DNA of 64,000 bases, taken from a bacterium. GTDB taxonomy: Bacteria > Patescibacteriota > Minisyncoccia > Moranbacterales > GWC2-37-73. Position 1 is the stretch's first letter; each line of letters begins with the position of its first letter. Below are positions 19,336-42,098 of the stretch, piece by piece. The stretch spans positions 12,334-76,333 of the forward strand of contig JBAXDL010000005.1 of the NCBI GenBank assembly GCA_037140955.1, read 5' to 3'. A model generated the notes under the pieces. That model saw only the letters and a program-made list of their open reading frames with translations. It was not told the DNA's origin and did no database searches. Both the position numbers and the translations under genes were made by a program.

Positions 19336-19471
19336 TGAATCCGGTAGTGAAAATTCAAAAGAAGGGAATATCGGATTGTTTCTGGAATGTTTTTAATCCA
19401 ATATGTAGCATTTTTATATAATTAAGAATTTTTTGAGCAAAGCTCATTTGAATTTCTACTACCGGATGAAT
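19336..19471. repeat. about 22-bp imperfect inverted repeat bracketing the secD 5' leader and start codon
   Basis: atgaatccggtagtgaaaattc ... gaatttctactaccggatgaat; the right arm contains the secD ATG. Confidence 0.5.
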
Positions 19472-21142
19472 ATAAAGAAAAAATTACAATTAAAATTTGG
19501 TGGGATTATTGTTTTGGCTTTAATGTGCGGCTTGTTTTCATATCCTCAAATTGTTAGCAAGGCTCCTCCTGTCTATGATTTTTTCAACAAGTTCAAGCTC
19601 AATCTCGGTCTTGATTTGCAAGGGGGATTTCATTTGGAATATAAGGCTGATGTTTCTAATATTGATTCAACAAAAGTTGCCGAGGCTATGCAAGGTGCGC
19701 AGACCGTCATCGAAAGACGAGTTAACGCTTTTGGTGTTGGCGAGCCATTGGTTCAAACAGCAAAAAGTGGACAAGAGAATCGTATTATTGTTGAATTGCC
19801 AGGAATAAAGGATATAGAAGAGGCAAAAACAAAAATCAAAGATGCTCCATTGTTGGAATTTAAAGAAGAAGGTCCGGTTGATGCTCAAGTTCAGCAAATG
19901 TTTGATCAAGCAAATCAGCAGGCAAAAGAAAAGGCTGCAAAAATTCTTGATGAGGTGAAAAATGGTGGTGATTTTGCGCAACTTGCAAAAGACAATAGTG
20001 AGGATCCAGGCTCAAAAGACAAAGGTGGTGATTTGGACTTTGTGAAAAAAGGAGCCTTTGTTCCTGAATTTGATAAAGTTTTGTTTGATTCAAATTTGAA
20101 GAATGGGGATATTTATCCTGATTTGGTTGAATCAACTTATGGATGGCATATTATCAAATTCATTGAATCTCGCGGTGAGGGTGCTGATTTGGAAGTTCAT
20201 GCTCAGCATATTCTTTTTTTGAAAAAAGATCCTTCTCAATATGATCAGTTCAAATATCAAACAACAGGATTGACTGGAAAAAATTTGAAAAGTGCTACTG
20301 CGCAATACTCTCAAGGACAAGGCCTTGGTGAGCCAGAGGTTGCTTTGCAATTTGATGAAGAAGGAACAAATCTTTTTGCTGAGTTGACCAAGAAAAACCT
20401 TGGCAAAAAAATAGCCATCTTTCTTGATGGAGAGTTGCAAATAGCTCCAACTGTTCAGGTTGAAATTACTAATGGTCAAGCGGTTATTACCGGAAATTAT
20501 ACTTTCAAAGAAGCAAAGGATATTTCTGACAGATTGAATCAAGGAGCGCTTCCAGTTCCTTTGACCTTGGTTGGACAACAGAGTGTTGAGGCAACTCTTG
20601 GGGCTGATTCGCTGCGAAGCATTTTGATTGCTGGTGCAATTGGACTTGGTGCAGTGATTGTCTTCATGCTTATCTTCTATCGCTTCTTGGGATTGGTAGC
20701 CTCACTGGCTTTGCTTATTTATACTGTTGCAATGATTACGCTTTTCAAGATGACTGGAATTACTTTGACACTTTCTGGTATTGCAGGGTTTGTGCTTTCA
20801 ATTGGAATGGCGGTGGACGCAAATATTTTGATTTTTGAAAGAACAAAAGAAGAAATTAGAGGTGGTCGCTCAATTGCAAACTCATTGGAAGAAGGATTCA
20901 AGCGTGCTTGGACTTCAATTCGTGATGGAAATGTTTCTTCATTGCTCACTTCTGGAATTTTGTACTTGATGGGAACTGGATTTGTGAAAGGATTTGCGGC
21001 TGCACTTTTCATTGGAGTAGTGGTTTCCATGTTTACTGCGGTGGTGATTACTCGTACAATGCTTAAGTTTATTATTAGTGATTGGATTCATGGAAGAACA
21101 TGGATGGTTGGAGTTAGAAAAAAGGATATTAAAAATGGATAA
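19466..21142 (+). CDS. secD: protein-export membrane protein SecD with an embedded parvulin (PpiC/PrsA-type) PPIase domain
   Basis: SecD P1 start 'GLDLQGGFH', C-terminal TM bundle 'GMAVDANILIFER'; internal segment 'NGGDFAQLAKDNSEDPGSKDKGGDLDFV...STYGWHIIK' matches the parvulin fold; the track ORF starts at an alternative TTG (19433). Confidence 0.85.
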   Translation: MNIKKKLQLKFGGIIVLALMCGLFSYPQIVSKAPPVYDFFNKFKLNLGLDLQGGFHLEYKADVSNIDSTKVAEAMQGAQTVIERRVNAFGVGEPLVQTAKSGQENRIIVELPGIKDIEEAKTKIKDAPLLEFKEEGPVDAQVQQMFDQANQQAKEKAAKILDEVKNGGDFAQLAKDNSEDPGSKDKGGDLDFVKKGAFVPEFDKVLFDSNLKNGDIYPDLVESTYGWHIIKFIESRGEGADLEVHAQHILFLKKDPSQYDQFKYQTTGLTGKNLKSATAQYSQGQGLGEPEVALQFDEEGTNLFAELTKKNLGKKIAIFLDGELQIAPTVQVEITNGQAVITGNYTFKEAKDISDRLNQGALPVPLTLVGQQSVEATLGADSLRSILIAGAIGLGAVIVFMLIFYRFLGLVASLALLIYTVAMITLFKMTGITLTLSGIAGFVLSIGMAVDANILIFERTKEEIRGGRSIANSLEEGFKRAWTSIRDGNVSSLLTSGILYLMGTGFVKGFAAALFIGVVVSMFTAVVITRTMLKFIISDWIHGRTWMVGVRKKDIKNG

Positions 21143-22512: not shown

Positions 22513-22549
22513 TAAAACCCAACAGATTTTTGTCTGTTGGGTTTTTTTA
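22513..22549. terminator. bidirectional rho-independent terminator
   Basis: aacccaacaga/tctgttgggtt stem with flanking A-run and T-run between convergent genes. Confidence 0.65.
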
Positions 22550-23368
22550 CTTGCCATTTTTGGCATGATACATTTTTTTGTCAGCAATAGCAATTTCTTC
22601 TGATATGTCATTATCTTCGTTGAAGAGATGAATTCCAATGGAGATTGAAAGTGGAATTTCTTTTTGTTCATAAAAGAATCTAACACTTTTGACAGAATTG
22701 CTTATTCTGTTTGTCAGTTCTGTTACCTTTTTCGTGCCAGCTTCGTTGACTTTCTTTTCCTTGTTGAATGTCATTGGCTTTACTGGAATTACCAAGAAAA
22801 ACTCATCTCCTCCAATTCTGAAAAGTCTGTCCTCACTTCGTACATGCTCAGAAATGATCTTTGTAATTGTTGTGATAGCAGCATCGCCCGCATTATGTCC
22901 AAAAACATCATTGATGTGCTTTAACTTATCAATATCGAAGAATAAAAAATATAAGTCCTCTTGATGTCTCTTGGCTCTTGCGGATGATTGTCTGATGGTG
23001 TCGTGCAACAAAACTCTATTATATGCACCCGTCATTGAATCTTTGATTGAAAGCTCTTCTAGCTTTATCTGCAATTCCTCCAGTTGAATATTTTTCTCCC
23101 TTAATTCAATGTTTACTCTTTCAAACTCAAAGTAATCCTGCATTACGATTGTTGACTGCTGAGAAATTTTCATAAACAAAACAAGAGAAAAAATGCCGGT
23201 ACAGAAAAGTTTTGATTGCCAATTTTGTAATTGAGTCATGATATAAAAATGACCATGAAACACTGAAAAACCAATAATTAGGGATAGTGCAATTTGAATA
23301 GCAAGCCTATTCCTGTTTGAAAGTGAAAGTACCCACCAACGGCTAAGTGACAGTAGAATTCTATTCAT
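22547..23368 (-). CDS. membrane-anchored diguanylate cyclase (GGDEF domain with RxxD I-site)
   Basis: N-terminal TM helices, coiled coil, 'RSEDRLFRIGGDEFF'. Confidence 0.85.
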   Translation of the reverse strand: MNRILLSLSRWWVLSLSNRNRLAIQIALSLIIGFSVFHGHFYIMTQLQNWQSKLFCTGIFSLVLFMKISQQSTIVMQDYFEFERVNIELREKNIQLEELQIKLEELSIKDSMTGAYNRVLLHDTIRQSSARAKRHQEDLYFLFFDIDKLKHINDVFGHNAGDAAITTITKIISEHVRSEDRLFRIGGDEFFLVIPVKPMTFNKEKKVNEAGTKKVTELTNRISNSVKSVRFFYEQKEIPLSISIGIHLFNEDNDISEEIAIADKKMYHAKNGK

Positions 23369-27032: not shown

Positions 27033-27226
27033 AAGAAAAAAAGGATATTTTTTCATCCCAAAACAGTCAGAACTTTCAAGTCCGGCTGTTTTTTTGTCAG
27101 CTATTGACAAAAAAATAATATGTGTTAATATAATTTGAAATCAAGAGAGATTAATTTTGGCTCTAAATTTATGAAAACAAGCTGTTTCTGCCGGAGGGGA
27201 GATGCAAACTTTGTTTATACTGACAA

Positions 27227-28291
27227 ATGGAAAAAATAACAGATAAAAACAGCCAAGCAGTTGAGTCTGAAAAGGCGATATTTTCAGATGCACTGAAAAG
27301 TACCGTGAAAGATTTTTCACAAAGAAGTCAGGAGATAATTTTTTCTCGCTGGGGGGTTTTCAGTTCTCATTCTTTGACTTTGGAAGAGATTGGAAAAAAA
27401 TATCAAATTACTCGTGAGAGAGTTAGGCAAGTTATTCGCGAGGTTTTGAAAAAAGTTAAAGAAAAAAAGGATCAAACTGTTTTTCGTGAAATAGAAGAAA
27501 AAATTATTTTGGCGCTTAGAAATAATGGTGGTATAATGGAGGAGCAAAAACTTTTGTCTGTGCTTGTGGGAAAGCAAAAAAGTGAGCAAGCAGCAGTTTC
27601 ATTTTTTCTGGAATGTTTTGATAGTATTTGCAAAAATCAAATCAAGGGAGAACTTAAAGTTGCATATTCTTTGCCAAGTTTTGAAATTGAAAAATGGCGA
27701 AATGTGAAAAATGATTTGATTTTGGTTTTGAAACAACAGGCAAAACCTCTTTCAGTTGAAAAACTTTTTGAACTGACAAAAGCAAAGTCTGGTGAATTTG
27801 ATTTGAACATTGAAACATTCACACAATATCTTGAAATTTCAGAAGAGATCAAACAAAACACTTTTGGAAAATGGGGAATTGCAAAATGGAAAGAAATTTC
27901 TCCAAAAGGAACGCGTGAAAAGGCTTATCTTGTTTTGAAAGAGGTAGCCAAGCCTTTGCATTTTCGGGATATTGCCAAAAAGATTGATCAATATCATTTG
28001 AACAAAAAGAAAACTCATGCTCAAACAGTGCACAATGAATTGATCAAGGACAAAAATTTCGTGTTGGTGGGAAGGGGGATCTACGCGCTGGTTGAATGGG
28101 GATATCGCAGTGGAACAGTCAAGGATGTGATTGAAGAGATTTTGAAAAAAAATAAGGCTCCACTCAGCAAGGAAGAAGTACTAGAAATGGTTTTAAAAAT
28201 CAGACGTGTGAAAAAATCGACTATTGTGATAAACTTGAATAACTACTTTGCCAAATCAAAAACAGGCACATATTCAATTAAAAAATCTTAA
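27227..28291 (+). CDS. DNA-binding protein with N-terminal sigma-70 region-4 HTH and C-terminal HARE-HTH domain
   Basis: 'LTLEEIGKKYQITRERVRQVIREVLKK' (sigma r4-like); C-terminal 'FVLVGRGIYALVEWGY' matches the HARE-HTH motif (RpoE-delta N-domain type). Confidence 0.6.
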   Translation: MEKITDKNSQAVESEKAIFSDALKSTVKDFSQRSQEIIFSRWGVFSSHSLTLEEIGKKYQITRERVRQVIREVLKKVKEKKDQTVFREIEEKIILALRNNGGIMEEQKLLSVLVGKQKSEQAAVSFFLECFDSICKNQIKGELKVAYSLPSFEIEKWRNVKNDLILVLKQQAKPLSVEKLFELTKAKSGEFDLNIETFTQYLEISEEIKQNTFGKWGIAKWKEISPKGTREKAYLVLKEVAKPLHFRDIAKKIDQYHLNKKKTHAQTVHNELIKDKNFVLVGRGIYALVEWGYRSGTVKDVIEEILKKNKAPLSKEEVLEMVLKIRRVKKSTIVINLNNYFAKSKTGTYSIKKS

Positions 28292-28311
28292 AGTCACTCA
28301 AAAACAAAAAA

Positions 28312-29589
28312 ATGGACATTCTTCTAACTTCACTAGCTCAAATACCTGAAGATTTAAAAATGGTGTCGCAAGTAATAAATCACACTTGGTTTATTATTTT
28401 GCCACCACTTTTTTATTTTATCTTTAAAATTTTTTGGATTACACATATTCAAAATGCTTATTGGGCCTCTGCTAGTTGGGTTTTGTTGGAGCTTATTCCT
28501 CCAAAAAATATTGAAAAAAGCCCTAAGCCAATGGAGGCACTTTTTGTTGGCTTTGCAGGTGTGGAAAAAGGTTTTGACGTGGCTGAAACATATATCAGTG
28601 GAATGTTTGCTGATTCAATGAGTTTGGAGATGGTTAGTGATCAAGGGACAGTGCATTTTTACATCCGCAGCATGAAAAAATATCGCCATTTGGTGGAGGC
28701 TTCGCTCTATGCTCAATATCCCGATGTCGAAATCATTGAAGTTCCTGATTATGTTAATGATGTTCCCAAGGTTATTCCTAATGAAAAATGGGATTTGTGG
28801 GGAGCTGACATTGCATTTCAAAGTGATCCAGCTTATCCAATCAAAACGTATAAAGCTTTTGAAGAAGAAATTTCTGGCACCATGATTGACCCTTTGTCGA
28901 GTTTGTTGGAAGTTATGGGTAAATTGGGTCCAGGACAGCAGATGTGGCTACAGTGGGTGATTTCTCCAACATCTCCAGCTTGGGCTGGAAAAGAAGGGAA
29001 AAAATTGACTGACAAATTGAAGGGAAAAGAAAAGAAAGTCGTTTCTGTTCCGGAAAGATTGGTTAAGGATTTTTTGGATGTTGTCACAAACCTTTTCAAC
29101 GCCTTGCTAGGGCCGGTTGAATTTGCTGCAGAAAAGAAAAAAGAAGAAGCAGCATTGGACACAAGACTTTCTCCGGGAGAAAGAGATGTGCTCAAGGCCG
29201 TGGAGGATAATCTTGGAAAATTGCAATTTTACACCAAGGGAAGATTTATATATCTAGGTCGACGAGAAAATTATGACAAAGCGCTTGGAATTTCATCTTT
29301 TTGGGGAAGTCTCAAGCAATTTAATGACAACAATCTTAACAGCATGAAGCCTGATGGTGATTCAAAAACTTTTGCAAATTATTTCAACCAACGAAGTCGT
29401 TTGCGTTATCGTCAACGAAAAATATTAAGACGCTATCGCACTAGAAACAGGGATGGTGCAACATTGGTCTTTAGTACTGAAGAATTGGCCACACTTTTTC
29501 ATTTCCCTGATATGAACGTGATGGCTCCATCATTCACGCGCGTGGAAGCGAAGCGTGGTGGTGCTCCTTCAAATTTGCCGATTGAATAA
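28312..29589 (+). CDS. membrane-anchored hypothetical protein (two N-terminal TM helices), partner of the downstream ATPase
   Basis: 425-aa ORF 20 nt after the previous gene and 40 nt before the next; no recognisable catalytic motif. Confidence 0.55.
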   Translation: MDILLTSLAQIPEDLKMVSQVINHTWFIILPPLFYFIFKIFWITHIQNAYWASASWVLLELIPPKNIEKSPKPMEALFVGFAGVEKGFDVAETYISGMFADSMSLEMVSDQGTVHFYIRSMKKYRHLVEASLYAQYPDVEIIEVPDYVNDVPKVIPNEKWDLWGADIAFQSDPAYPIKTYKAFEEEISGTMIDPLSSLLEVMGKLGPGQQMWLQWVISPTSPAWAGKEGKKLTDKLKGKEKKVVSVPERLVKDFLDVVTNLFNALLGPVEFAAEKKKEEAALDTRLSPGERDVLKAVEDNLGKLQFYTKGRFIYLGRRENYDKALGISSFWGSLKQFNDNNLNSMKPDGDSKTFANYFNQRSRLRYRQRKILRRYRTRNRDGATLVFSTEELATLFHFPDMNVMAPSFTRVEAKRGGAPSNLPIE

Positions 29590-29629
29590 AGAGATAAATT
29601 AAAAATTAACTACAACGCTAGTTAACCAT

Positions 29630-31726
29630 ATGGCTCAAAAAAACGAAATTGCATTTTTTGCAAAAACAAATTTTAGAAATCAAGAAAGAGTTTTCGGCAT
29701 CAAAACTGATGATCGCACTCGACACATGTATATCATTGGAAAGACCGGTATGGGAAAAACAAACCTGCTGGAAAATTTGGTGGTGCAGGACATTAGAAAC
29801 GGTCATGGTATTTGTTATATTGATCCACATGGTGACACGGCTGAAAAATTGCTTAGAGCGATTCCCGCTGAACGCATTAATGATGTTATTTATTTGAATC
29901 CTTCTGATCAAAATTATCCTTTGGCTTTCAACGTGATGGAATCGGTTGATCCTGACTATCGTCACTTGGTGGCATCGGGCTTGATTGGTGTTTTCAAAAA
30001 AATCTGGGCTGATTCCTGGGGACCACGCTTGGAGTATATTTTGCGTAATGCAATTTTGGCACTTTTGGAATATCCTGGGAGCACCTTGCTGGGTGTGACC
30101 AGGATTTTGGTGGACAAGAAATATCGCGAAAGAGTGGTTGAAAAGGTGACTGATCCGGTGATTAGGCAATTTTGGGTGGATGAATTTCCAAAATGGAGTG
30201 ACAAGGTTTTGCAAGAAGTTGTTTCTCCGATTCAAAACAAGGTTGGACAATTCTTGTCATCTTCTTTGATTCGAAACATTGTTGGTCAAACAAAATCTTC
30301 TTTTGACATTCGAAATGCAATGGACACGCAAAAGATTTTGATCATCAATCTTTCCAAAGGAAGAATTGGTGAAGACAATGGTGCGCTTTTGGGAGCCATG
30401 ATGATCACCAAGATTCAATTGGCAGCCATGGGACGCGTGGACATAGCGGAGGCTGATCGTAAAGATTTTTATTTATATGTTGATGAGTTTCAAAATTTTG
30501 CCACAGAATCTTTTGCCAACATTTTGTCTGAAGCTCGAAAATATCGCTTGAATTTGATTTTGGCAAATCAATATATCACTCAAATTGATGAAAAAGTTCG
30601 TGATGCTATTTTTGGTAATGCTGGCACGATCATTTCTTTTCGTGTGGGTGCGATGGATGCTGAATTTTTGGAAAAAGAATTTATGCCAGTTTTTGTGCAA
30701 AATGACATCGTGAATTTGCCAAAATATAACATATATTTGAAGCTCATGATTGATGGAATTGCAGGTGATGCTTTTTCTGCTACTGTTTTGCCACCTGTTT
30801 ACATCGGTGACACGGCTGAAAATGAGGAAAAGATTATTGCAGCTTCGCGTGAGCGTTATGCTTCTAGTAAGGAAGAAGTTGAAGACAAAATTTCACGTTG
30901 GGCTGGTGTGATGCCTGCAGCAGGCTTTACTACTGTCAACAAGGCTCCTGAGCAAGTTGCTCAAAATCCAAATAATATTAAATATGTTCATCCGGTGAGC
31001 AGCCCTCAGCAAAGATCAAATTCAATACAGAATTTTGCTCCAAAAGCAGTTGCTGCCCCAGTTGCACTAAAAGCTCAGCAACCAGTGCGAAATGTTGCCT
31101 CAAGCGCTCCTGTAAGCGCTCCAGTGCCTATTGCTGCTCCTTTGTCTCAAAAATCAGTGCAGCGGCCAGTTGAAGAACAAAAAAAGCCCTATGTGCAGGA
31201 TGATTTGGGGGAATATAATGAAATTCCAAAAAATGAGGCTGTACAATCAATTGCAGCTGAGCCAGAAGAAAATCATGACTATTATGTGAAGCCAATTGAT
31301 GATCGGCCAAAATTTGATGCTGTTTGCGACATGTGCGCGGACAATATTCAAATTCCTTTTGCTCCAGATGGAAAAAGACCAACTTTTTGCAAGGATTGCT
31401 TGAAAGAATATCAACGCATGAATGCTAAGGAGAAATTGAAGCAGGAAGAGAAAATAAAGCGACAGCAAGAAGAAGCGCAGGTTCAAGAGGTGCCAACTGC
31501 TTCGCCAGCAAAAACATATCCAAAAAAGTTTGAAAGCAAGTCTGCTACAAATCAAGCGCCAAGACAAGAAAGAAAAACCGAACACAAGGCTTTTGTTTCT
31601 AAGGATAGGCCCATGTCACTTTCGCAAATGCAGCATATTGCACCCAAGCAATTCAAGCCAACTCGCGTCCGTCCACAAATAAACTTGAGTGAAGTGAGAG
31701 AAATGATTAATAAAAACAAAGAATAG
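29630..31726 (+). CDS. FtsK/HerA-superfamily P-loop ATPase (T4 coupling-protein / DUF87-like) with low-complexity linker and C-terminal C4 zinc ribbon
   Basis: 'RHMYIIGKTGMGKT' Walker A in T4CP-like context, 'IDPHGD', Walker B 'YVDEFQNF', 'RKYRLNLILANQ'; C-terminal 'CDMCADN...FCKDC'. Confidence 0.7.
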   Translation: MAQKNEIAFFAKTNFRNQERVFGIKTDDRTRHMYIIGKTGMGKTNLLENLVVQDIRNGHGICYIDPHGDTAEKLLRAIPAERINDVIYLNPSDQNYPLAFNVMESVDPDYRHLVASGLIGVFKKIWADSWGPRLEYILRNAILALLEYPGSTLLGVTRILVDKKYRERVVEKVTDPVIRQFWVDEFPKWSDKVLQEVVSPIQNKVGQFLSSSLIRNIVGQTKSSFDIRNAMDTQKILIINLSKGRIGEDNGALLGAMMITKIQLAAMGRVDIAEADRKDFYLYVDEFQNFATESFANILSEARKYRLNLILANQYITQIDEKVRDAIFGNAGTIISFRVGAMDAEFLEKEFMPVFVQNDIVNLPKYNIYLKLMIDGIAGDAFSATVLPPVYIGDTAENEEKIIAASRERYASSKEEVEDKISRWAGVMPAAGFTTVNKAPEQVAQNPNNIKYVHPVSSPQQRSNSIQNFAPKAVAAPVALKAQQPVRNVASSAPVSAPVPIAAPLSQKSVQRPVEEQKKPYVQDDLGEYNEIPKNEAVQSIAAEPEENHDYYVKPIDDRPKFDAVCDMCADNIQIPFAPDGKRPTFCKDCLKEYQRMNAKEKLKQEEKIKRQQEEAQVQEVPTASPAKTYPKKFESKSATNQAPRQERKTEHKAFVSKDRPMSLSQMQHIAPKQFKPTRVRPQINLSEVREMINKNKE

Positions 31727-31735
31727 TACTAGTTT

Positions 31736-31767
31736 AAAAAACAACCATCTTATGGTTGTTTTTTTTA
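31736..31767 (+). terminator. strong rho-independent terminator closing the 27227-31726 operon
   Basis: aaacaaccat/atggttgttt stem followed by a T8 run. Confidence 0.7.
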
Positions 31768-31913: not shown

Positions 31914-32435
31914 ATGAGTATTGTAAATTGGATTGCGTTTGTTGGCCTCTTTTTTGTTATTTTTGCTGGAAATGTTTGGATTGATAAATCAATCATGAAA
32001 AAATGGGTGTTAAAAAGAGGAATAGGTTCGTTTTTCCTCTATGCAGCGTTTGCATTCCTACTTTCCAATTTTTCTGATATTGGTTCATATCTGCACGTTG
32101 AAAAAAATGTGCCATTTGAATGGAAAGAGAATATTTTGGCAAAACAAAGCATCGAAGAAGTTTCTATGAGCAAAGAGAGAGAAGGACATTTATTTTTGGG
32201 TTGTGGAAGTTTTCGTGAACGTGAAACGTTTCGCTACACGGCCAATAATGAAGATGGCTCATATCATCGCGACAAGGTGTACACTTCTGAGTGTGTGGTC
32301 CTGAAGGCTGAAGATGAGAATAGCCAACGGATTGAAAAGGTGCAGGTGGTGCGAGAATACAAGAATAAATCTGACAAGAGTTGGTTCGGGACCAAGATGG
32401 ACAAGAAGGATTCGTTCTATAGGATATATCTATAG
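31914..32435 (+). CDS. hypothetical membrane protein
   Basis: 173-aa ORF with two N-terminal hydrophobic helices. Confidence 0.45.
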   Translation: MSIVNWIAFVGLFFVIFAGNVWIDKSIMKKWVLKRGIGSFFLYAAFAFLLSNFSDIGSYLHVEKNVPFEWKENILAKQSIEEVSMSKEREGHLFLGCGSFRERETFRYTANNEDGSYHRDKVYTSECVVLKAEDENSQRIEKVQVVREYKNKSDKSWFGTKMDKKDSFYRIYL

Positions 32436-32607: not shown

Positions 32608-33924
32608 ATGAAACAAAAAACAGCACTCGAAATTTTGAAAATGGGACATAATGTTTTTTTGACTGGTCCAGCCGGTTCTGGCAAAACATTTTTGCTAAAT
32701 GAGTATATTGATTATCTCAAGAAAAATGGCATTGGCGTGGCAGTGACTGCTTCCACTGGGATTGCAGCGACACACATGAATGGTCAAACAATTCATTCAT
32801 GGTCAGGCATGGGGATCAGTGATGTTTTCTTGGAGGATGATTTTGCTAAACTAAAAAAAAGATATTATCATTGCGAACGCTTTAGGCACACCAAAGTGCT
32901 TATTATTGATGAAGTTTCAATGCTTCACGCTCATCAGTTGGACATTGTGAACAATATTTGCAAAAACTTTAAAAACCCAAAACTTCCTTTTGGTGGCTTG
33001 CAGGTTATTTTGTGTGGAGATTTTTTTCAATTGCCGCCGGTTGTGCGAAACGGAAAAAAGGCGCAATTTGTGATTGAATCTGAGGCTTGGATTGAAATGG
33101 ATCCAAAAATTTGTTACTTGGAAGAGCAGCACAGGCAAGAGGATTCTGCTATGTTGAAAATTTTGGCTGATATTCGAGGTAGAGCTTGCGACGAAGAGAC
33201 TATTGATCTTATTTGTTCCCGCCAAAACAAAAATATTAAAAATGGTATTACACCAACAAAGCTGTACACTCATAATGCTAACGTTGATGGTATTAATAAT
33301 TTGGAGCTTAAAAAAATAAATGAAGAACCTAAAATTTTTCAAATGACAACTGCTGGCATTGAACAATTGGCGGCGGTGGTGAAGAAGGGTTGTCTTGCTC
33401 CTGAAACATTGACGTTGAAAAAAGGAGCTGTGGTGATGTTTGTGAAAAACAATTTTGAAAAAGGTTATGTTAATGGAACTCTTGGAAAAATTAAGGATTT
33501 TGATCAAAGCGGGATGCCAATCGTGAAAACCTTTGCCGGCAAAGACATTGTGGCTCTGGCAGAAAAATGGTCAATTGAGGAGGATGGTGAGATGTTGGCA
33601 TCGGTTAGTCAAATTCCGCTGCGCTTGGCCTGGGCGATTACTGTGCACAAAAGTCAGGGAATGACGCTTGATGCTGTTGAAATGGATCTGGGACGTTCTT
33701 TTGAATATGGCATGGGATATGTTGCTCTTTCGCGAGTGAGGACACTTGATGGTATAAAATTGCTAGGAATAAATGATATTGCTTTGGAGGTCAATCCAAT
33801 AGTATTTGAACTGGACAAGGTGCTCAAGGAATTGTCGAATGCGAATTCAAAAGCGACCTTGAAAATGAAAATTAGTGAAAAAAAATCTTTGCAAAAAAAG
33901 TTTTTAGAAAAATGCATAAACTAG
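32608..33924 (+). CDS. Pif1/RecD-like SF1B DNA helicase (AAA_30 + UvrD_C_2 architecture)
   Basis: Walker A 'GPAGSGKTF', 'VLIIDEVSML', 'ILCGDFFQLPPV', 'AITVHKSQGMTLD'. Confidence 0.8.
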   Translation: MKQKTALEILKMGHNVFLTGPAGSGKTFLLNEYIDYLKKNGIGVAVTASTGIAATHMNGQTIHSWSGMGISDVFLEDDFAKLKKRYYHCERFRHTKVLIIDEVSMLHAHQLDIVNNICKNFKNPKLPFGGLQVILCGDFFQLPPVVRNGKKAQFVIESEAWIEMDPKICYLEEQHRQEDSAMLKILADIRGRACDEETIDLICSRQNKNIKNGITPTKLYTHNANVDGINNLELKKINEEPKIFQMTTAGIEQLAAVVKKGCLAPETLTLKKGAVVMFVKNNFEKGYVNGTLGKIKDFDQSGMPIVKTFAGKDIVALAEKWSIEEDGEMLASVSQIPLRLAWAITVHKSQGMTLDAVEMDLGRSFEYGMGYVALSRVRTLDGIKLLGINDIALEVNPIVFELDKVLKELSNANSKATLKMKISEKKSLQKKFLEKCIN

Positions 33925-34020: not shown

Positions 34021-34530
34021 ATGAAAATAAAAAAACAAGCACCAAAGAAAACAAAAACTGTTCCAAAGAAAAAAGTTGTTTCCAAAGTTCGCACAGTAAC
34101 TTTGACAAAAAAAGTTGTCAAAAAAACAAAGACTGCTCCAGTAGCAAAAGCTGCCCTCAAAAAACACAAAACAATTGCAGCAATAAGAATTGATAGTAGA
34201 AAAGAGGTTACTAGTGTTTTTTCAACTAGTGAAAAAAGAGAACTTAGACATTCCTTGAAACGTTGGACGTATATGGTTCTTGCTTTGACTGTTGGAATTT
34301 TGTCTGCTGGCTTCGTGACTGGTATTTTGGAAAAAATTTATATTGAAAATAATCTTAGAATGGGGCATGAATTGCTGACACATCAATTTTTGGGAATGAG
34401 CATGTTTCTTCTGCCGGTGGCATATATAGTAATCTTTGGAATTGGAATTTGTTTTGGAATCTGGCTTGGCTTTTGGGGTTGGCGGGTGGTATATATCGAA
34501 CACAACCATCGTATTTTTCGCAAAAAATAA
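34021..34530 (+). CDS. protein with histone-H1-like Lys-rich N-terminus and C-terminal TM helices
   Basis: 'KKQAPKKTKTVPKKKVVSK...KKVVKKTKTAP' followed by two hydrophobic helices. Confidence 0.5.
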   Translation: MKIKKQAPKKTKTVPKKKVVSKVRTVTLTKKVVKKTKTAPVAKAALKKHKTIAAIRIDSRKEVTSVFSTSEKRELRHSLKRWTYMVLALTVGILSAGFVTGILEKIYIENNLRMGHELLTHQFLGMSMFLLPVAYIVIFGIGICFGIWLGFWGWRVVYIEHNHRIFRKK

Positions 34531-34650: not shown

Positions 34651-34740
34651 GAAAGGGGGAAGATGAGTTGTAACTTAAAAAAAGGGGGAGGATGCATTGA
34701 AATTGGCGCTGTCAAAAAAGAAAGGGGAGGTTATGATTAA
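34651..34740 (+). promoter_or_regulatory. leader with three tandem strong SD sequences and a 25-codon uORF that overlaps the main start
   Basis: aaagggggaagATG (34663), aaagggggaggATGcatTGA (34692), aaaggggaggttATG (34733); the uORF stop TAA at 34738-34740 overlaps the main ATG. Confidence 0.45.
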
Positions 34741-35770
34741 CATTGATTTGGATATGGGCATTCACACCATGCGAATGCCACATGGAATCAAGAAGCTTTT
34801 TTTGGATATGATCCAATCATTGGACATTACCCAGGGAAATTTTAAGATTCACTTGGGCAAGAACATTCGAGGAGTTAGTCAGAAGGGTATAAAATTCATT
34901 AAGGTTCTGCCACAGTATTGCGCCATTTGGGTCAAGGCGCAGCCTTCCGGCAAGGAAGGCCGTCATGAATGCACGGTATATTTTCCAGATATTTATAAGA
35001 ATGATCTTGGAAAGTTTGGCGAGCTTCTGCAGTCAAAAGTTGGTCAGGAAGATTGGGCTGATGAAGAGGTTATTCCTGAAGAGGAAATTGCTACAACTAT
35101 GGATGATGTTAAAGCTACCATAATTGATGTTGAACATGTTGAGAATGCTATTATTAGACAGCAACAATATCAAGCTGAAGCATTAATCTTGAGTGCGGAA
35201 ATGCTATCTCTCATTGTCGGTGATATTTTTGAAAAAAAAGGCACTGGCTGGATTTTCAAGAGTGCATTGTTCAAGATTTTGAATAATTTGAAACTGCAAT
35301 ACGCTACTAATAAGTTGATTGGAAGACTTTTCCATTTGGGATATCTTGAAAGAGATCCTGAGAATCTTGAAAAAAGAAGTCGACTGACTCAATCGGCATG
35401 TCTGCTTATCAATGCTCCGATCCCGCTTGACACTGGACACAAGATTGTCATTGGAAGTAGTGAAGATGACTTGAAAGTTTATAATGCTGTAGATTTTCTT
35501 CGAAGGTCGAACGCAATTTATAAAAAGCTTTTAATTAATCAGTCAAAGGCTTTTGATGAACTCGAAAAGCTTAAGTGTGCCGATGAGAAATTGCAAAAAA
35601 GAATCTCACGTCTTGCGGAATTGATGGAAGTGAAGATGCAGGAAAATCTGGTCATGATTAATGAAAAAAGTCTTGAGATAGAAAAAATTTCACAAGGCAT
35701 AACGCCTCGCTTGATTGAGGCATCAAAAAGATTTGAGATTATTATGGCAGATGATCTGCCTCCAGAATAA
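34733..35770 (+). CDS. hypothetical protein
   Basis: 345 aa from an ATG with ideal RBS aaaggggagg; the track ORF begins at an alternative TTG (34697). Confidence 0.55.
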   Translation: MINIDLDMGIHTMRMPHGIKKLFLDMIQSLDITQGNFKIHLGKNIRGVSQKGIKFIKVLPQYCAIWVKAQPSGKEGRHECTVYFPDIYKNDLGKFGELLQSKVGQEDWADEEVIPEEEIATTMDDVKATIIDVEHVENAIIRQQQYQAEALILSAEMLSLIVGDIFEKKGTGWIFKSALFKILNNLKLQYATNKLIGRLFHLGYLERDPENLEKRSRLTQSACLLINAPIPLDTGHKIVIGSSEDDLKVYNAVDFLRRSNAIYKKLLINQSKAFDELEKLKCADEKLQKRISRLAELMEVKMQENLVMINEKSLEIEKISQGITPRLIEASKRFEIIMADDLPPE

Positions 35771-35869: not shown

Positions 35870-36376
35870 ATGAAAAAGAAAATTATTGTCGTTAATGACA
35901 AAATGCAAAAAAATTATAGTTACGAACTTTCGCAGCCTATGGGGAAAAATTTTGATCCTCTTTTTGCGCCAGAGTTGACACCAAGGCAAATGCTGGAACT
36001 CGGTGTTTTTGGTGGAAAATACATGACAGATTGTCAAAATGAATTTCCGCATGATTGGTTTTCTTTTGCCAAATTGAGCAGCAAAAAACGCGATAAAAAT
36101 CTAAATTTTTTTGGAGTTAATGCTAGTCAGTCTTTGAAGGAATGGCGCCGCAATGGCTGGATTGAGGTTAATGATCCACGCGGGTGGTTTCAATGGTATT
36201 GTAGATATTATATGGGAAGGCGCTGCGGCGATGATATGCGGCAGATAAAGCGCTGGAGGGCTTTTATTAGGCACTATAGTGCGGTTAAGAATAATTGCTT
36301 TGCTTTTGATTTTTCTTGTCGAACTCGTCAACGTCAGGCACTTTTGCATTGGGCCTATGACAGTCGAAAAATATGA
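35870..36376 (+). CDS. conserved hypothetical protein with Trp/Arg/Tyr-rich C-terminal motif
   Basis: 168 aa; 'RGWFQWYCRYYMGRR...RQIKRWRAF'; family not recognised. Confidence 0.5.
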   Translation: MKKKIIVVNDKMQKNYSYELSQPMGKNFDPLFAPELTPRQMLELGVFGGKYMTDCQNEFPHDWFSFAKLSSKKRDKNLNFFGVNASQSLKEWRRNGWIEVNDPRGWFQWYCRYYMGRRCGDDMRQIKRWRAFIRHYSAVKNNCFAFDFSCRTRQRQALLHWAYDSRKI

Positions 36377-40580: not shown

Positions 40581-42098
40581 ATGAATCAACTTGTTATTAG
40601 AAAATTAAAAGAGTGGCGCGCGCAGATTGCAAGTCGAGATAATCTTGAGCTTTTTCGTGTTATTCCAAACAAAACAATTGATGATCTTGGTGAACTTTTG
40701 CCAATCAACAAAGAAGAACTCCTTGCAATTAAGGGCATTAAGGATAAAAAATTTGAAAAATATGGCAGACAGATTCTGGCTATCATTAATGAAACAATTG
40801 CCAATGAAAATGCGCCAATTGTGCCGGCTGTGGAGGTTGAAGATGGAAACAAGAGAAATGAAAAAATATATTCAGTTAGTTCATATTTAGATAGGATTAA
40901 TGATGATATTGCAAGAATCAGTGCTGGAATTTGTGGTGAGGTTTCAAGTGTGAGCTTCAAGGGGCATTTGTATTTTTCTTTGAAGGACAAAAATGATGGA
41001 AGCGTGCTGTCATGTTTTATGTGGGCAAGGGATTATGAAAACAGTGGCATCGAGATGCGCGAAGGCGAGGAGCTTATTATTCATGGTTTTCCTGAGATCT
41101 ATAAGCCAAATGGAAAATTCACGTTTAGAACCAGTGCCATTGAGTTGGTTGGTGAGGGAGCGCTCAAAAATGCTTATGAAGAATTGAAAAGAAAATTGTC
41201 AGCAGAAGGATTGTTTGATGAAGCAGTAAAAAAGCCAATGCCTGATTTTCCTTCGCGCATCGGCTTGATAACCTCCAGAGATGGCGCAGTTACTAATGAT
41301 TTTTTGAACAATATTGGCAGGTTTGGATATCAAATAAAATTCGTTAATTCTAGGGTTGAAGGTGCTATGGCTGTTGGCGACTTGATTGGTGCGGTGGAAT
41401 ATTTCAAAGACAAGGACATTGATTTGTTGGTTATTATTCGAGGAGGTGGCAGTTTGGAGAGCCTGCAGGCTTTTAATAATGAAATTTTGGTTCGCAAAAT
41501 TGCAGATTTGGACGTGCCCGTGATTTGTGGCATTGGACATGACAAGGATGTTCCGCTTTTGTCTTATGTTGCAGATTTAGCAGTTTCAACACCATCGATT
41601 GTAGCCAAGGAGCTTAATCGCAGTTGGGAAAAGGCTGTCGACAGACTTGATTATCACGAATTGAATATTCTAAATACTTTTGATGCAGTCCTTAAAAAAT
41701 CAGAGCGAAAATTGGAAAACAGTGTGATTGAAATTAAAGATTTTTATCAAGCTATCTTTCGAAAATTTGATTTTTATCATCAGGCGCTTGTAAATATTAT
41801 TGGCAATGTTAGTTATCTTATTAAAAAAGATCTTGAAATGGTGGAAAAAATTCCTCAGAAATTGCTGGTTGATTTTGGTAGATTGATTTTTTCGACCAAC
41901 AAATCACTTGATAATTATGAAAAGTCTTTAAGGCAGAATAATCCAGAACGCCAACTTGCCTTGGGATATAGTATTATCAGTGTTGATGGTAAAATTGTGA
42001 AATCAATCAGTGAAATTTCTGTTGGCTGTGAAATTGTCAACAAAATGAGCGATGGTCAAATAATTTCAATTGTAAAAAAGGTGGATAAAAAGAATTAA
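40581..42098 (+). CDS. xseA: exodeoxyribonuclease VII large subunit with N-terminal HhH-type extension
   Basis: OB-fold, then 'IIRGGGSLESLQAFNNE', 'CGIGHDKDVPL'. Confidence 0.85.
   Translation: MNQLVIRKLKEWRAQIASRDNLELFRVIPNKTIDDLGELLPINKEELLAIKGIKDKKFEKYGRQILAIINETIANENAPIVPAVEVEDGNKRNEKIYSVSSYLDRINDDIARISAGICGEVSSVSFKGHLYFSLKDKNDGSVLSCFMWARDYENSGIEMREGEELIIHGFPEIYKPNGKFTFRTSAIELVGEGALKNAYEELKRKLSAEGLFDEAVKKPMPDFPSRIGLITSRDGAVTNDFLNNIGRFGYQIKFVNSRVEGAMAVGDLIGAVEYFKDKDIDLLVIIRGGGSLESLQAFNNEILVRKIADLDVPVICGIGHDKDVPLLSYVADLAVSTPSIVAKELNRSWEKAVDRLDYHELNILNTFDAVLKKSERKLENSVIEIKDFYQAIFRKFDFYHQALVNIIGNVSYLIKKDLEMVEKIPQKLLVDFGRLIFSTNKSLDNYEKSLRQNNPERQLALGYSIISVDGKIVKSISEISVGCEIVNKMSDGQIISIVKKVDKKN

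Follow-up and report, generated by a model that had tools for sequence, protein, structure and literature searches.

Classical coupling proteins (T4CPs) such as TrwB of R388, VirD4, TraD and DotL (PF10412, PF02534, PF12696) have two membrane helices of their own, an all-alpha domain, a P-loop motor in which the Walker A and Walker B motifs lie about 240 residues apart, and a C-terminal extension to which, in the known cases, adaptors or accessory proteins bind. In the 'long' T4CPs, represented by proteins of Peribacillus, Embleya and phage G (gp156), a DUF8128-like N-terminal domain is followed by the T4CP ATPase in one fused polypeptide, encoded on mobile elements beside VirB4-like, VirB6, PrgI and relaxase genes. 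FtsK/SpoIIIE and Streptomyces TraB, whose motors belong to the same ATPase superfamily, likewise combine an anchor, a low-complexity linker, a hexameric-type motor and winged-helix readers. Among 2,918 Patescibacteria genomes 5,713 VirD4-like T4CPs have been counted, merely 148 of them near virB4, and the authors allow for exaptation of these proteins (PMC12102498); in Southlakia epibionticum a t4cp homologue is not essential in co-culture (PMC12857230). The gene trio described here, from a very small bacterium of the candidate phyla radiation, belongs to these orphan Patescibacterial T4CPs, reported in 2025. Its second and third genes repeat the domain order of the 'long' T4CPs and have the same EELAT.FH.P junction motif, but the Patescibacterial version is split, unlinked to transfer genes and joined to a gene for a sigma4/winged-helix protein. 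We consider it fairly probable that these two genes represent a split coupling protein that has been domesticated and fixed in the chromosome and is co-transcribed with the first gene.

The three open reading frames lie on the plus strand of the window, as we call the whole 64,000-nt stretch of DNA analysed here, and encode 354 aa (gene 1, 27,227–28,291; sigma-70 region 4 followed by four winged helices), 425 aa (gene 2, 28,312–29,589; DUF8128, PF26449, the putative N-terminal half of that coupling protein, anchored in the membrane) and 698 aa (gene 3, 29,630–31,726; a VirD4/TrwB-type ATPase with linker, zinc ribbon and basic tail). The gaps of 20 nt (28,292–28,311) and 40 nt (29,590–29,629) given in a preliminary description of this DNA were recovered exactly, and the three genes are best read as one transcription unit with its own promoter and terminator hairpin. 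The promoter-like site (27,104–27,131, plus strand) consists of TTGACA, a 16-nt spacer and TAATAT with an upstream TG, matching the consensus at 10 of 12 positions with an extended -10, and is located 3' of a terminator-like hairpin closing pheT. The pattern TTGACA-N15-19-TAnnnT recurs within the 200 nt that precede gene 1 in 61 of 72 related loci, the spacer sequence being almost identical among Moranbacteria. At the other end, the terminator proposed earlier was supported by folding: an intrinsic-terminator hairpin at 31,736–31,764 (plus strand) has a 13-bp stem, a 3-nt loop, an A-tract before it and a U-tract after it (dG -12.5 kcal/mol, z -4.06), and none of 200 shuffles folded equally well. 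A consensus terminator scan did not call this 3' hairpin because its stem contains few G-C pairs. The GC content of the operon is the same as that of its surroundings.

Gene 3 is a VirD4/TrwB-type T4CP ATPase without a membrane segment, its best Kyte-Doolittle value being 1.27 (19-aa window). All four motifs quoted in the preliminary description are present in its ATPase domain (29,675–30,904; aa 16–425): RHMYIIGKTGMGKT at aa 31–44, including the Walker A motif GKTGMGKT at aa 37–44 (29,738–29,761), IDPHGD at aa 64–69, the Walker B motif YLYVDEFQNF at aa 281–290 (30,470–30,487) and RKYRLNLILANQ at aa 303–314, so that the spacing of the two Walker motifs is that of classical T4CPs. These are also its nearest matches: the Pfam families TrwB_AAD_bind (41.5 bits, cut-off 20.5) and TraG-D_C (28.1 bits, cut-off 22), the TraD families at the top of the NCBIfam matches, and DotL (1.3e-7) and TrwB (2.5e-7) in a PDB profile search, the same two proteins giving the best PDB sequence matches. 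No FtsK chain and no VirB4/TrwK appeared among the PDB matches, and Pfam gave no FtsK_SpoIIIE match at E 0.01 or better, placing the ATPase outside FtsK proper. The HerA-like affinity suggested at first is thus secondary, although a weak DUF87 match was found, and NCBIfam models of the archaeal DNA-import ATPases CedD (2e-7) and CedB (1e-3) matched the P-loop region weakly. Between Moranbacteria and Komeili- or Falkowbacteria the ATPase domain is 60–62% identical.

The C-terminal extension of gene 3 begins with an Ala/Pro/Val/Gln-rich low-complexity linker (30,905–31,303; aa 426–558), which varies in length and sequence among orthologues. It is followed by a zinc ribbon (31,304–31,408; aa 559–593) that matches PF23477 zf_Tbcl_2 (E 1.6e-8) and TIGR04272 'CxxC-x17-CxxC' (E 1.4e-9); its presence had been recognised beforehand, with a spacing of 18 residues that has to be corrected to 17 (C566-x2-C569-x17-C587-x2-C590). 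Of 72 full-length orthologues taken from the genome collection and the encoding contigs, 67 have the ribbon, against about half of the wider gene 3 family, where it does not co-vary with gene 1. The protein ends in a basic Lys/Glu/Gln-rich tail (31,409–31,723; aa 594–698) that closes with APKQFKP..RPQINLSEVREMI; Moranbacteria have the motif ..KKFK..R.RP.VNL.EVR.LI here and distant lineages VD[IV].DLR.AL..SL, also in proteins without the zinc ribbon. Compared with classical T4CPs, gene 3 differs in its zinc-ribbon tail, in the lack of a membrane segment, in having its anchor on a separate protein resembling the VirB4 N-terminal domain, in having no T4SS or relaxase genes in its neighbourhood, and in being chromosomal, vertically inherited and extremely conserved.

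The idea that the 425-aa protein supplies the anchor held up, and gene 2 is in fact the N-terminal domain that gene 3 lacks, both deriving from one ancestral protein. It has a single predicted transmembrane helix (28,384–28,449; aa 25–46, TWFIILPPLFYFIFKIFWITHI; Kyte-Doolittle 1.75, 19-aa window), within a long N-terminal helix of the model (aa 2–53). One helix on a separate protein speaks against the favoured reading, and six such helices would not form a DNA pore. The globular alpha/beta domain that follows (28,477–29,511; about aa 56–400) contains no Walker motif, and in the model its fold resembles the N-terminal domain of VirB4/TrwK, which TrsD-like proteins have as a stand-alone unit, not the NurA- or Sir2-like partner once considered. 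The likeness is one of predicted structure: gene 2 is not detectably similar in sequence to any chain in the PDB and has no CagE_TrbE_VirB Pfam match, and the partner ATPase is VirD4-like by sequence, with TIGR00929 reached merely at E 1e-3. EccE of the mycobacterial ESX type VII secretion system scored much weaker against gene 2 and shows no sequence similarity to it, and other ESX components are absent. The C-terminal segment of gene 2 (29,467–29,586; EELATLFHFPDMNV..RVEAKRGGAPSNLPIE) is near-invariant, its last 22 residues (aa 404–425) are disordered in the model (pLDDT <50), and it may be a docking element for the ATPase.

Comparison with fused relatives shows that genes 2 and 3 correspond, at the level of sequence, to two halves of one T4CP split into two polypeptides, and the ancestor is most simply a 'long' T4CP from conjugative elements of the Gram-positive type, with both halves in a single chain. 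In phrog_5156 (824 positions), positions 62–257 match gene 2 (E 1e-8) and 407–805 match gene 3 (E 1e-62). The N-terminus of phage G gp156 (825 aa) aligns with DUF8128 (hhalign 95.9%, E 6e-9) and its C-terminus with gene 3 (29% identity, E 1e-44). Residues 54–313 of an 870-aa T4CP from a Peribacillus plasmid align with DUF8128 positions 100–421 (97%, E 1e-10); this alignment takes in EELAT.FH.P and stops about 30 residues ahead of the gene 3-matching part, so the C-terminal segment of gene 2 lies about 30 residues ahead of the ATPase domain in the fused protein. N-terminal similarity to DUF8128 is weak in an 812-aa T4CP of an Embleya plasmid (E 1e-3) and in a haloarchaeal protein (E 8e-3). The loci that encode the fused proteins are genuine conjugation loci and also contain VirB4-like, VirB6-like, PrgI, relaxase-like and TcpE genes, and the nearest relatives outside the Patescibacteria are on plasmids and phages.

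Gene 1 encodes a predicted DNA binder that possibly also binds RNA polymerase. The pairing of sigma-70 region 4 with a HARE-HTH noted earlier is real, while its supposed rarity is not: among the best 120 homologues 4 have the HARE-HTH alone and all others have both domains, and the architecture is widespread in this lineage. Aravind and Iyer are said to have described bacterial proteins with a HARE-HTH and a sigma-like module in Cell Cycle in 2012. Region 4 (4.1 and 4.2; 27,275–27,490; aa 17–88) is colinear with region 4.1–4.2 of primary sigma factors, matches Sigma70_r4 at aa 31–79 (Pfam, E 3e-10) and RpoD/SigA region 4 in the PDB profile search (E about 1e-14), and retains the recognition helix TLEEIGK..ITRERVRQV, in which T62, R63, E64, R65, R67 and Q68 are invariant among 28 orthologues. 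For all its likeness to sigma-70 factors in this region and its TRERVRQ helix, gene 1 lacks regions 1.2, 2 and 3 and therefore cannot be a sigma factor. In the AF2 model (pLDDT 87) region 4 is followed by four winged helices, of which the third is the HARE-HTH (27,917–28,099; aa 231–291; PF05066, E 1.4e-12, 48.3 bits, cut-off 25.9), the most conserved part of the protein, with H264–Y293 almost invariant. This domain is shared with the RNA polymerase delta subunit, but the acidic C-terminal tail of delta is absent and gene 1 scores 30.4 bits against the delta model, under its cut-off of 42; three further winged helices set it apart from sigma and delta alike. Its own C-terminus is rich in Lys, as is typical of many T4SS substrates.

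The trio is found in the same order in about 160 independent Patescibacterial loci, often 3' of secD-secF, and since this order recurs so widely it is not a chance arrangement; conservation of the three genes as a set is strong. Each of the 80 Moranbacteria genome loci shows this order as far as its contig reaches, and so do Komeilibacteria, Falkowbacteria and one long unclassified metagenome contig. Among 80 diverse metagenome loci gene 3 follows DUF8128 directly in 58 of 61; gene 1 immediately precedes DUF8128 in 51 of 59 and is missing beside the DUF8128-ATPase pair in the other 8. The gap between genes 2 and 3 has a median of 35 nt and is 20 nt or less in 43% of cases. The trio remains intact while flanking genes vary between loci. 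Measured against the window, diverged loci have a median identity of 64% in the ATPase domain, 54% in SecA, 47% in SecD, 44% in SecF and 35% in genes 1 and 2, so that the ATPase is better conserved than SecA, SecD, SecF and also PheT. These comparisons show very strong purifying selection on a trio that is, on the same evidence, part of the core chromosome, vertically inherited and nearly unchanged across the bacterial group. The genes of more than 600 aa in the window are all housekeeping, and the identified neighbours are secDF, pheST and similar genes. The earlier statement that the module has no housekeeping function is consequently doubtful, given its place in the core chromosome, usually 3' of secD-secF, and an ATPase more conserved than SecA. 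An association with relaxase or integrase genes was not seen: tblastn found no T4SS or relaxase genes in 1.88 Mb of related loci and the window, and VirB4, VirB6, relaxase, integrase and other transfer genes are absent near the trio. The non-essentiality of the Southlakia t4cp fits a core function poorly, assuming that this gene is orthologous to the trio.

If the trio is a domesticated split coupling protein, gene 2 would contribute one membrane helix together with a VirB4 N-terminal-domain fold on the cytoplasmic side, and gene 3 the VirD4/TrwB-type P-loop motor with its flexible linker, zinc ribbon and conserved peptide at the C-terminus. In a gene 2-gene 3 complex, the invariant tail at the end of gene 2 would dock the ATPase ring at the membrane. 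Gene 1 would bind DNA, probably by reading -35-like TTGACA elements with the recognition helix of sigma region 4.2, which is intact, and could serve as a nucleic-acid-recognition adaptor comparable to relaxosome accessory proteins or the winged helices of FtsK gamma and TraB, with the gene 3 tail as docking site for adaptor or substrate. ATP hydrolysis would then pass the substrate, whatever its nature, to a membrane channel encoded elsewhere. That channel may be a separately encoded Patescibacterial T4SS, at less than even odds; that the trio acts instead as a T4SS-independent DNA pump seems to us slightly less likely still. Classical conjugative transfer of ssDNA by the trio is unlikely because no relaxase was found nearby.

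The first of these options, in which genes 2 and 3 serve in trans as coupling protein for a T4SS located elsewhere in the genome and recruit protein or DNA substrates to the pilus-bearing apparatus, with gene 1 as adaptor or cargo, is possible, if short of an even chance. Patescibacterial T4SS loci generally lack a T4CP while homologues abound elsewhere in the same genomes (PMC12102498). In other systems T4CP genes often lie far from virB4, the nearest fused relatives are genuine conjugative T4CPs with VirB4 as partner, the VirB4-like domain of gene 2 would suit the inner-membrane platform of VirB4, and the Lys-rich end of gene 1 resembles many T4SS substrates. Against this, the T4SS of Southlakia is essential and its t4cp is not, the window and related loci contain no T4SS genes, and the presence of virB4 in this genome is an assumption; the version in which the sigma4/delta-like gene 1 protein is delivered to the host and acts on host RNA polymerase is without direct support. 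A membrane-anchored DNA pump like FtsK/SpoIIIE or TraB, working in chromosome or nucleoid handling at division or in DNA uptake with ComEC, we judge rather unlikely. By analogy the parts fit, with gene 2 as anchor, gene 3 as motor and Pro/Gln/Ala-rich linker and gene 1 as winged-helix readers, and core-genome position, vertical descent, extreme conservation, the lack of relaxase and T4SS genes nearby and the weak CedD and CedB matches all agree with it. However, matches to FtsK_SpoIIIE and FtsK chains are missing, the readers are on a separate protein and the order of parts differs, a canonical ftsK is mentioned, for Saccharibacteria at least, in TM7x transcriptome papers, comEC is dispensable in Southlakia, and the DNA specificity of gene 1 is deduced from its conserved sigma-4.2 residues only.

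Two further readings are much harder to reconcile with this conservation. An anti-phage module of the HerA/DUF87 or MADS type, in line with the defence role entertained in the preliminary description, is very improbable: the PADLOC mad8 profile matches gene 3 (E 3.6e-18), HerA profiles and DUF87 match it weakly, and the C-terminal sigma region of MzaA has a match in gene 1, but only one of eight MADS genes has a counterpart, the MzaA match is generic sigma region 4 (51.8 bits, cut-off 800), methyltransferase, nuclease, NurA and Sir2 are absent, and a universal, syntenic, vertically inherited trio among housekeeping neighbours is the opposite of patchy, fast-turnover defence islands. The family also has a single partial match in 2.9 million viral contigs. 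This, with the intact reading frames in about 160 loci, the conserved split point and tail motif, an ATPase 58–96% identical across lineages where SecF is 38–51% identical, the unremarkable GC content and the lack of integrase, relaxase and transfer genes, makes a decaying remnant of an integrated conjugative element or prophage scarcely credible, even though a split gene can signal decay and the nearest outside relatives are on plasmids and phages. It is unlikely, to a far lesser degree, that gene 1 is an RNA-polymerase-associated sigma4/delta hybrid functionally unrelated to genes 2 and 3, merely sharing or regulating their promoter. Sigma region 4 and the delta HARE-HTH both derive from RNA polymerase subunits, JGI names of gene 1 homologues include 'RNA polymerase delta subunit', some DUF8128-ATPase pairs lack gene 1, and the unusually conserved promoter is compatible with autoregulation; yet gene 1 keeps its place in all Moranbacteria and most diverse loci while other neighbours vary, lacks sigma regions 2 and 3, and falls under the delta cut-off. 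Gene 1 could still be a transcription factor merely co-transcribed with the split coupling protein, and the frequent linkage to secD-secF, and to secA, could point to protein rather than nucleic acid substrates.

Gene 3 (29630-31726, + strand, 698 aa), the last gene of the trio, has the VirD4/TrwB-type P-loop nucleotide-binding domain of a type IV coupling protein (T4CP), with Walker A and Walker B, and carries no N-terminal membrane anchor in the same polypeptide. TrwB_AAD_bind (PF10412) matched at 41.5 bits against a cut-off of 20.5 (aa 26-333) and TraG-D_C (PF12696) at 28.1 bits against 22, with DUF87 giving a weaker match than either of these Pfam families. As regards the all-alpha domain that interrupts the nucleotide-binding domain of T4CPs, the PF10412 alignment places gene 3 aa 26-333 on profile positions 11-304, Walker A and Walker B lying ~240 residues apart. 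Conjugative TraD families were the top NCBIfam matches (TraD, 3e-14); the VirB4 model TIGR00929 reached an E value of 1.2e-3 only. When PDB was searched with the single gene 3 sequence, TrwB and DotL were the best matches, and a 13-sequence gene 3 profile recovered DotL (1.3e-7) and TrwB (2.5e-7) and neither an FtsK chain nor VirB4. FtsK/SpoIIIE was rejected as an identity for gene 3 on this profile search and because PF01580 was not among the matches at E ≤0.01. All the motifs named in the preliminary description were found, namely Walker A GKTGMGKT (aa 37-44), IDPHGD (aa 64-69), Walker B YLYVDE (aa 281-286) and RKYRLNLILANQ (aa 303-314), and its statement that the ATPase has no TM segment agrees with a best Kyte-Doolittle window of 1.27.

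The ATPase domain (aa 16-425) is followed by an Ala/Pro/Val/Gln-rich linker, a zinc ribbon (aa 559-593; Pfam zf_Tbcl_2 and TIGR04272) and a basic tail with a conserved terminal peptide. The ribbon had been described as CxxC-x18-CxxC; it is present, but the cysteines C566, C569, C587 and C590 set the spacing at x17, in agreement with TIGR04272 and zf_Tbcl_2. It occurs in 67 of the 72 full-length gene 3 orthologues from the genome-collection and encoding-contig loci, and in only about half of the wider gene 3 family. Co-variation of the ribbon with gene 1 was rejected, since loci with gene 1 had the ribbon in 24 cases and lacked it in 20, and those without gene 1 had it in three and lacked it in three; the ribbon is an accessory feature. 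A short amphipathic motif persists at the end of the tail (VNL.EVR.LI here, VD[IV].DLR.AL..SL elsewhere), and a second motif, ISL.EAL...P..F, is also recurrent in the gene 3 tail. In known T4CPs, as TraD-TraM and DotL-IcmSW illustrate, it is on the C-terminal tail that adaptors or accessory proteins dock.

The closest non-Patescibacterial relative found for gene 3 is a stand-alone 395-aa ATPase on a Sulfitobacter mediterraneus plasmid (locus L085, 7953-9140), which is 42% identical to gene 3, has neither N-domain nor tail, and has transposase genes just downstream. It may reflect horizontal transfer.

Gene 2 (28312-29589, + strand, 425 aa) belongs to a family without a named function: an identical protein carries the precomputed Pfam assignment PF26449 (DUF8128), as do most of its listed homologues. 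The family is large, with 1,771 representatives after clustering at 50%, and its named members are all entered as "hypothetical protein". Our local Pfam-A copy, which differs in version from the precomputed annotation, gave no family for gene 2, probably because the library is older. Clusters of distant DUF8128 members consisted for the most part of metagenome proteins without a name; one DUF8128 protein is labelled Planctomycetes and is probably mis-binned or mislabelled. The suggestion that gene 2 could bear the membrane anchor was upheld by a single hydrophobic window at aa 25-46 (1.75), and this helix would anchor gene 3 in trans.

In an AlphaFold2 model of gene 2 (pLDDT 75.5, pTM 0.71), a long N-terminal helix with the membrane segment precedes an alpha/beta domain and a tail (aa 404-425) that is disordered in the model, yet near-invariant in sequence. 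The protein has no P-loop. An independent Foldseek search gave TrwK chains as all of the best 13 matches (probability 0.94-1.0), followed by EccE3. The 60 matches listed in the fold comparison included no TrwB, FtsK, HerA or lone VirB4 C-terminal ATPase-domain structure, so the match is to the VirB4 N-terminal domain, and the model thus predicts that gene 2 has this fold. The fold comparison alone was informative here, the DUF8128 profile having returned nothing meaningful against PDB sequences (best E 1.2). Gene 2 likewise had no CagE_TrbE_VirB Pfam match, no PDB sequence match and no PADLOC match; genes 2 and 3 have neither a VirB4-type sequence signature nor a VirB4-type C-terminal ATPase.

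The key result is that genes 2 and 3 are a single protein cut in two, for which there are four lines of evidence. Both genes align in order on the 824 positions of phrog_5156, a PHROGs family of unknown function, gene 2 at 62-257 (E 1e-8) and gene 3 at 407-805 (E 1e-62). In the fused gp156 of Bacillus phage G (825 aa) the C-terminal half shares 29% identity with gene 3 (E 1e-44) and the N-terminal part matches the DUF8128 profile with 95.9% probability (E 6e-9); gp155, directly before it, is VirB4-like. The clearest case is an 870-aa "DUF87" protein from a Peribacillus plasmid, residues 54-313 of which align to DUF8128 100-421 (97% probability, E 1e-10). This alignment contains EELAT.FH.P, the part matching gene 3 begins about 30 residues beyond it, and the gene is followed by those for a replication-relaxation-family protein, a conjugal transfer protein and a TcpE homologue. 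Lastly an 812-aa T4CP from an Embleya plasmid, 33% identical to gene 3, lies in a complete Gram-positive-type transfer cluster with TrbL/VirB6-like, PrgI, VirB4-like, relaxase-like and NlpC/P60 genes; DUF8128 similarity is weak at its N-terminus (E 1e-3), as it is in a haloarchaeal version of 1,193 aa.

From the homology of both halves to fused proteins it follows that the ancestor was a "long" coupling protein, in which a VirB4-NTD-like front half preceded a VirD4-like motor, and which in the Patescibacterial lineage is divided between two adjacent genes. Fusions of the phrog_5156 type share with genes 2 and 3 the colinear DUF8128-like N-domain and T4CP ATPase. They differ in that a mobile element encodes them as one polypeptide, with VirB4 and a relaxase as neighbours, whereas genes 2 and 3 are separate and lie on a core chromosome. 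The phage G pair gp155-gp156 (locus L086, 2220-6362) puts a VirB4-like ATPase and a fused DUF8128-T4CP, that is, a T4SS-type ATPase pair, into a jumbo phage, and weaker homologues of the ATPase were seen in ~40 other Bacillus phages. In a collection of 2.9 million viral contigs there was one partial match to the family, and a viral origin in the Patescibacterial lineage was rejected on this count.

Gene 1 (27227-28291, + strand, 354 aa) opens the trio, and the intergenic gaps of 20 nt and 40 nt bear out the tight spacing previously reported. The terminator expected after gene 3 was likewise located, as a 13-bp hairpin with a U-run at 31736-31764 (dG -12.5 kcal/mol, z-score -4.06), for which a simple terminator scan made no call because its G-C pairs are few. 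A promoter on the + strand (TTGACA-16-TAATAT with an extended -10, 27104-27131) stands 3' of a terminator-like hairpin that closes pheT. This promoter, the pheT-closing hairpin and the 3' hairpin together make the trio a transcription unit of its own. Its surroundings are those of a chromosome: GC is ~37% across the window with no local anomaly, and the neighbours are the housekeeping genes secA, secD, secF, pheS, pheT, alaS, dnaK and dnaB, together with two P-type ATPases, an exonuclease VII and a Pif1 helicase. A 176-kb metagenome contig carries proteins identical to those of the window, and all the closest relatives are labelled Candidatus Moranbacteria, Parcubacteria or Patescibacteria. 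The window is therefore core chromosome of a member of the Patescibacteria (CPR) and no mobile island.

The order gene 1-gene 2-gene 3 was kept in 80 Moranbacteria-type genome loci wherever the contig allows, which answers the proposed gene-neighbourhood check. The loci from this genome-collection scan are all of Moranbacteria type, its search patterns having been derived from close relatives. Upstream of the trio these loci have pheT (26), secF (2), an M16 peptidase (2) or no gene detectable with the window proteins (51). A scan seeded on the EELAT motif yielded 80 further loci from diverse metagenomes, in which gene 2 is 31-51% identical; gene 3 lay directly downstream in 58 of the 61 with room for it and gene 1 directly upstream in 51 of 59, and secF followed further upstream in 26 of 35, sometimes preceded by secA. 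The gap between genes 2 and 3 had a median of 35 nt and was ≤20 nt in 43%. In one long unclassified metagenome contig, as in Komeilibacteria and Falkowbacteria, the arrangement is secD-secF-gene 1-gene 2-gene 3.

Across diverged loci, median identity to the window proteins was 64% for the gene 3 ATPase domain, 54% for SecA, 47% for SecD, 44% for SecF, and 35% for both gene 1 and gene 2; even across classes, when Moranbacteria are compared with Komeili-/Falkowbacteria, the ATPase domain retains 60-62% identity. The three genes are transcribed together and passed on vertically, and purifying selection on them is very strong. A rare uncoupling of the gene 2/gene 3 pair was seen in the metagenome locus L168 (200-5238), where dnaG-rpoD come after DUF8128 and the ATPase is missing. 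Many of the Moranbacteria-type loci (L009, L013, L018, L019 and many more) come from MAG records titled 'uncultured Bdellovibrionales bacterium', which are probable mislabels.

The pairing of sigma region 4 with a HARE-HTH that had been noticed in gene 1 was recovered, with region 4 at aa 17-88 and the HARE-HTH internal, at aa 231-291, where another winged helix follows it. Residues 17-88 are colinear with region 4.1-4.2 of primary sigma factors (profile E ~1e-14) and keep the recognition helix TLEEIGK..ITRERVRQV. T62, R63, E64, R65, R67 and Q68 show no variation among 28 orthologues and correspond to the sigma-70/SigA region 4.2 positions that read the -35 hexamer; gene 1 would thus bind TTGACA-like DNA. 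Gene 1 is not itself a sigma-70 family sigma factor, because regions 2 and 3 are missing and only region 4 is present, and the NCBIfam sigma models were all far below cut-off. It was also rejected as an RNA polymerase delta subunit, TIGR04567 scoring 30.4 bits against a cut-off of 42 and the HARE-HTH being internal, not N-terminal. Comparison with the 'replication-relaxation' relaxases found after fused T4CPs gave a probability of 0.2% and no similarity, which rules out a degenerate relaxase as the identity of gene 1.

A search for the remaining parts of a transfer system gave a uniform answer. No VirB4-, VirB6-, PrgI- or relaxase-like gene was detected by tblastn in the window and 1.88 Mb of related loci, a comparison in which the Embleya T4CP query matched 155 loci, and the large ORFs of the window included no T4SS (VirB4, VirB6) or relaxase gene. 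The relaxase association that the preliminary description had proposed to look for is thus lacking in the window and these loci, as is the linkage to a T4SS or relaxase expected of a T4CP. Two parts of its interpretation were not supported. The HerA and DUF87 matches of gene 3 are weak only and the profiles do not support membership, and for a defence role there is only a domain-level PADLOC match to mad8 and the weak HerA matches, among housekeeping neighbours. HerA-NurA and MADS-type defence were rejected: MADS is an eight-gene operon, and beyond the mad8 domain match it has no counterpart here. Overall, the observation made in that description was borne out and its interpretation supported in part only.

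In its make-up the module combines a split T4CP with a sigma4/winged-helix protein, and it lies apart from T4SS and relaxase genes. It would work like a coupling protein and descends from one, but lacks two defining features of classical T4CPs, a membrane anchor of their own and linkage to a T4SS or relaxase. In the working that we propose, the tail of gene 2 would hold the ATPase ring at the membrane, gene 1 would be an adaptor that recognises nucleic acid, the tail of the gene 3 ATPase would offer a docking site, and the motor would drive its substrate into a channel whose genes lie elsewhere. A DNA pore needs more than the single helix that each gene 2 protomer brings, so a separate channel would be required. 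A Patescibacterial T4SS may act in trans as the partner of the gene 2/3 pair, in keeping with a 2025 survey in which Patescibacterial T4SS loci are usually without a T4CP (PMC12102498); however, the T4SS of Southlakia is essential and its t4cp is not, and that t4cp may or may not be an orthologue of the trio. The pair may also have a role independent of any T4SS. The same survey counted thousands of "orphan" VirD4-like genes in Patescibacteria, far from virB4, left their role open, and raised exaptation as a possibility (PMC12102498).

The recurrent secDF/secA neighbourhood could be no more than inherited synteny, or else a sign of protein substrates; in a speculative variant, the cargo would be gene 1. 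We think it rather unlikely that the trio is a Patescibacteria-specific cellular machine, of a new kind, for membrane-anchored handling of nucleic acid or effectors without a relaxase, and not a leftover of conjugation. On that reading a conjugation-derived ATPase may have been split, fixed beside Sec genes and wired to a sigma4/winged-helix reader of promoter-like DNA. If true, such a machine might transfer DNA between the epibiont and its host, or might hold the nucleoid in place and pump it, and in the boldest version its own sigma4/delta-like protein would be delivered into the host and target the RNA polymerase there.

Much of bacterial diversity belongs to the Patescibacteria, which rely on host cells, and their exchange of material with these hosts is little understood. 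With the split coupling protein described here, the orphan T4CP gains a defined anatomy (a split T4CP with a DUF8128 half, a fixed partner and a position after secDF), and the question of what Patescibacterial orphan T4CPs do becomes testable on three proteins, although nothing categorically new is involved. DUF8128 gains a structural and evolutionary assignment, and the combination of a VirD4-type motor with a VirB4-type N-domain informs the divergence of the two T4SS ATPases. In the literature library searched, there was no mention of DUF8128/PF26449, nor of HARE-HTH in the Candidate Phyla Radiation. We found no earlier description of the VirB4 N-terminal-domain fold of DUF8128, of DUF8128 as the detached N-terminal half of an orphan T4CP, of the fused versions as coupling proteins of Gram-positive-type conjugative elements and a jumbo phage, of the firm tie between the gene 2/3 pair and a sigma4/HARE-HTH protein, in many cases with secDF as well, or of conservation of the motor beyond that of SecA.

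Several further features of the locus were observed. The promoter region of the operon (27104-27140; TTGACAAAAnTTTnATATGTGTTAATATAATTTGAAAC) is near-identical in Moranbacteria, spacer included, upstream of gene 1 in the related loci L003-L029, and is much better kept there than flanking intergenic DNA; regulation may act at this site, conceivably through gene 1. An inverted repeat, TTGTCA-gctat-TGACAA (27094-27110), overlaps the -35 hexamer and was observed in the window genome and identical contigs only. Just 3' of the trio lies a Pif1-family helicase gene (32608-33924), which is a neighbour in the closest relatives only (L003, L012) and so stands outside the module. For four ORFs 3' of the trio (31914-32435, 34021-34530, 34697-35770 and 35870-36376) no Pfam family reached its curated cut-off, one of them showing only a sub-threshold DUF3450 match in a coiled-coil-like region; their conservation does not extend beyond the nearest relatives. 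The exonuclease VII large subunit (40581-42098) has an N-terminal HRDC domain, an unusual fusion.

On the other side of the trio, a GGDEF-domain gene on the opposite strand (22547-23368, - strand) and pheS-pheT separate secF from the trio in the window genome and its closer relatives, and in other lineages gene 1 lies directly 3' of secF; the GGDEF gene and pheS-pheT look as if inserted into an ancestral order in which the trio adjoined secDF. In SecD (19433-21142) a parvulin-type PPIase (Rotamase) domain separates the first periplasmic segment from the P1 head, and a chaperone-like isomerase is thus part of this Sec accessory subunit. The same architecture is found in SecD of Komeili-/Falkowbacteria (loci L083, 3041-4726, and L084, 2575-4617).
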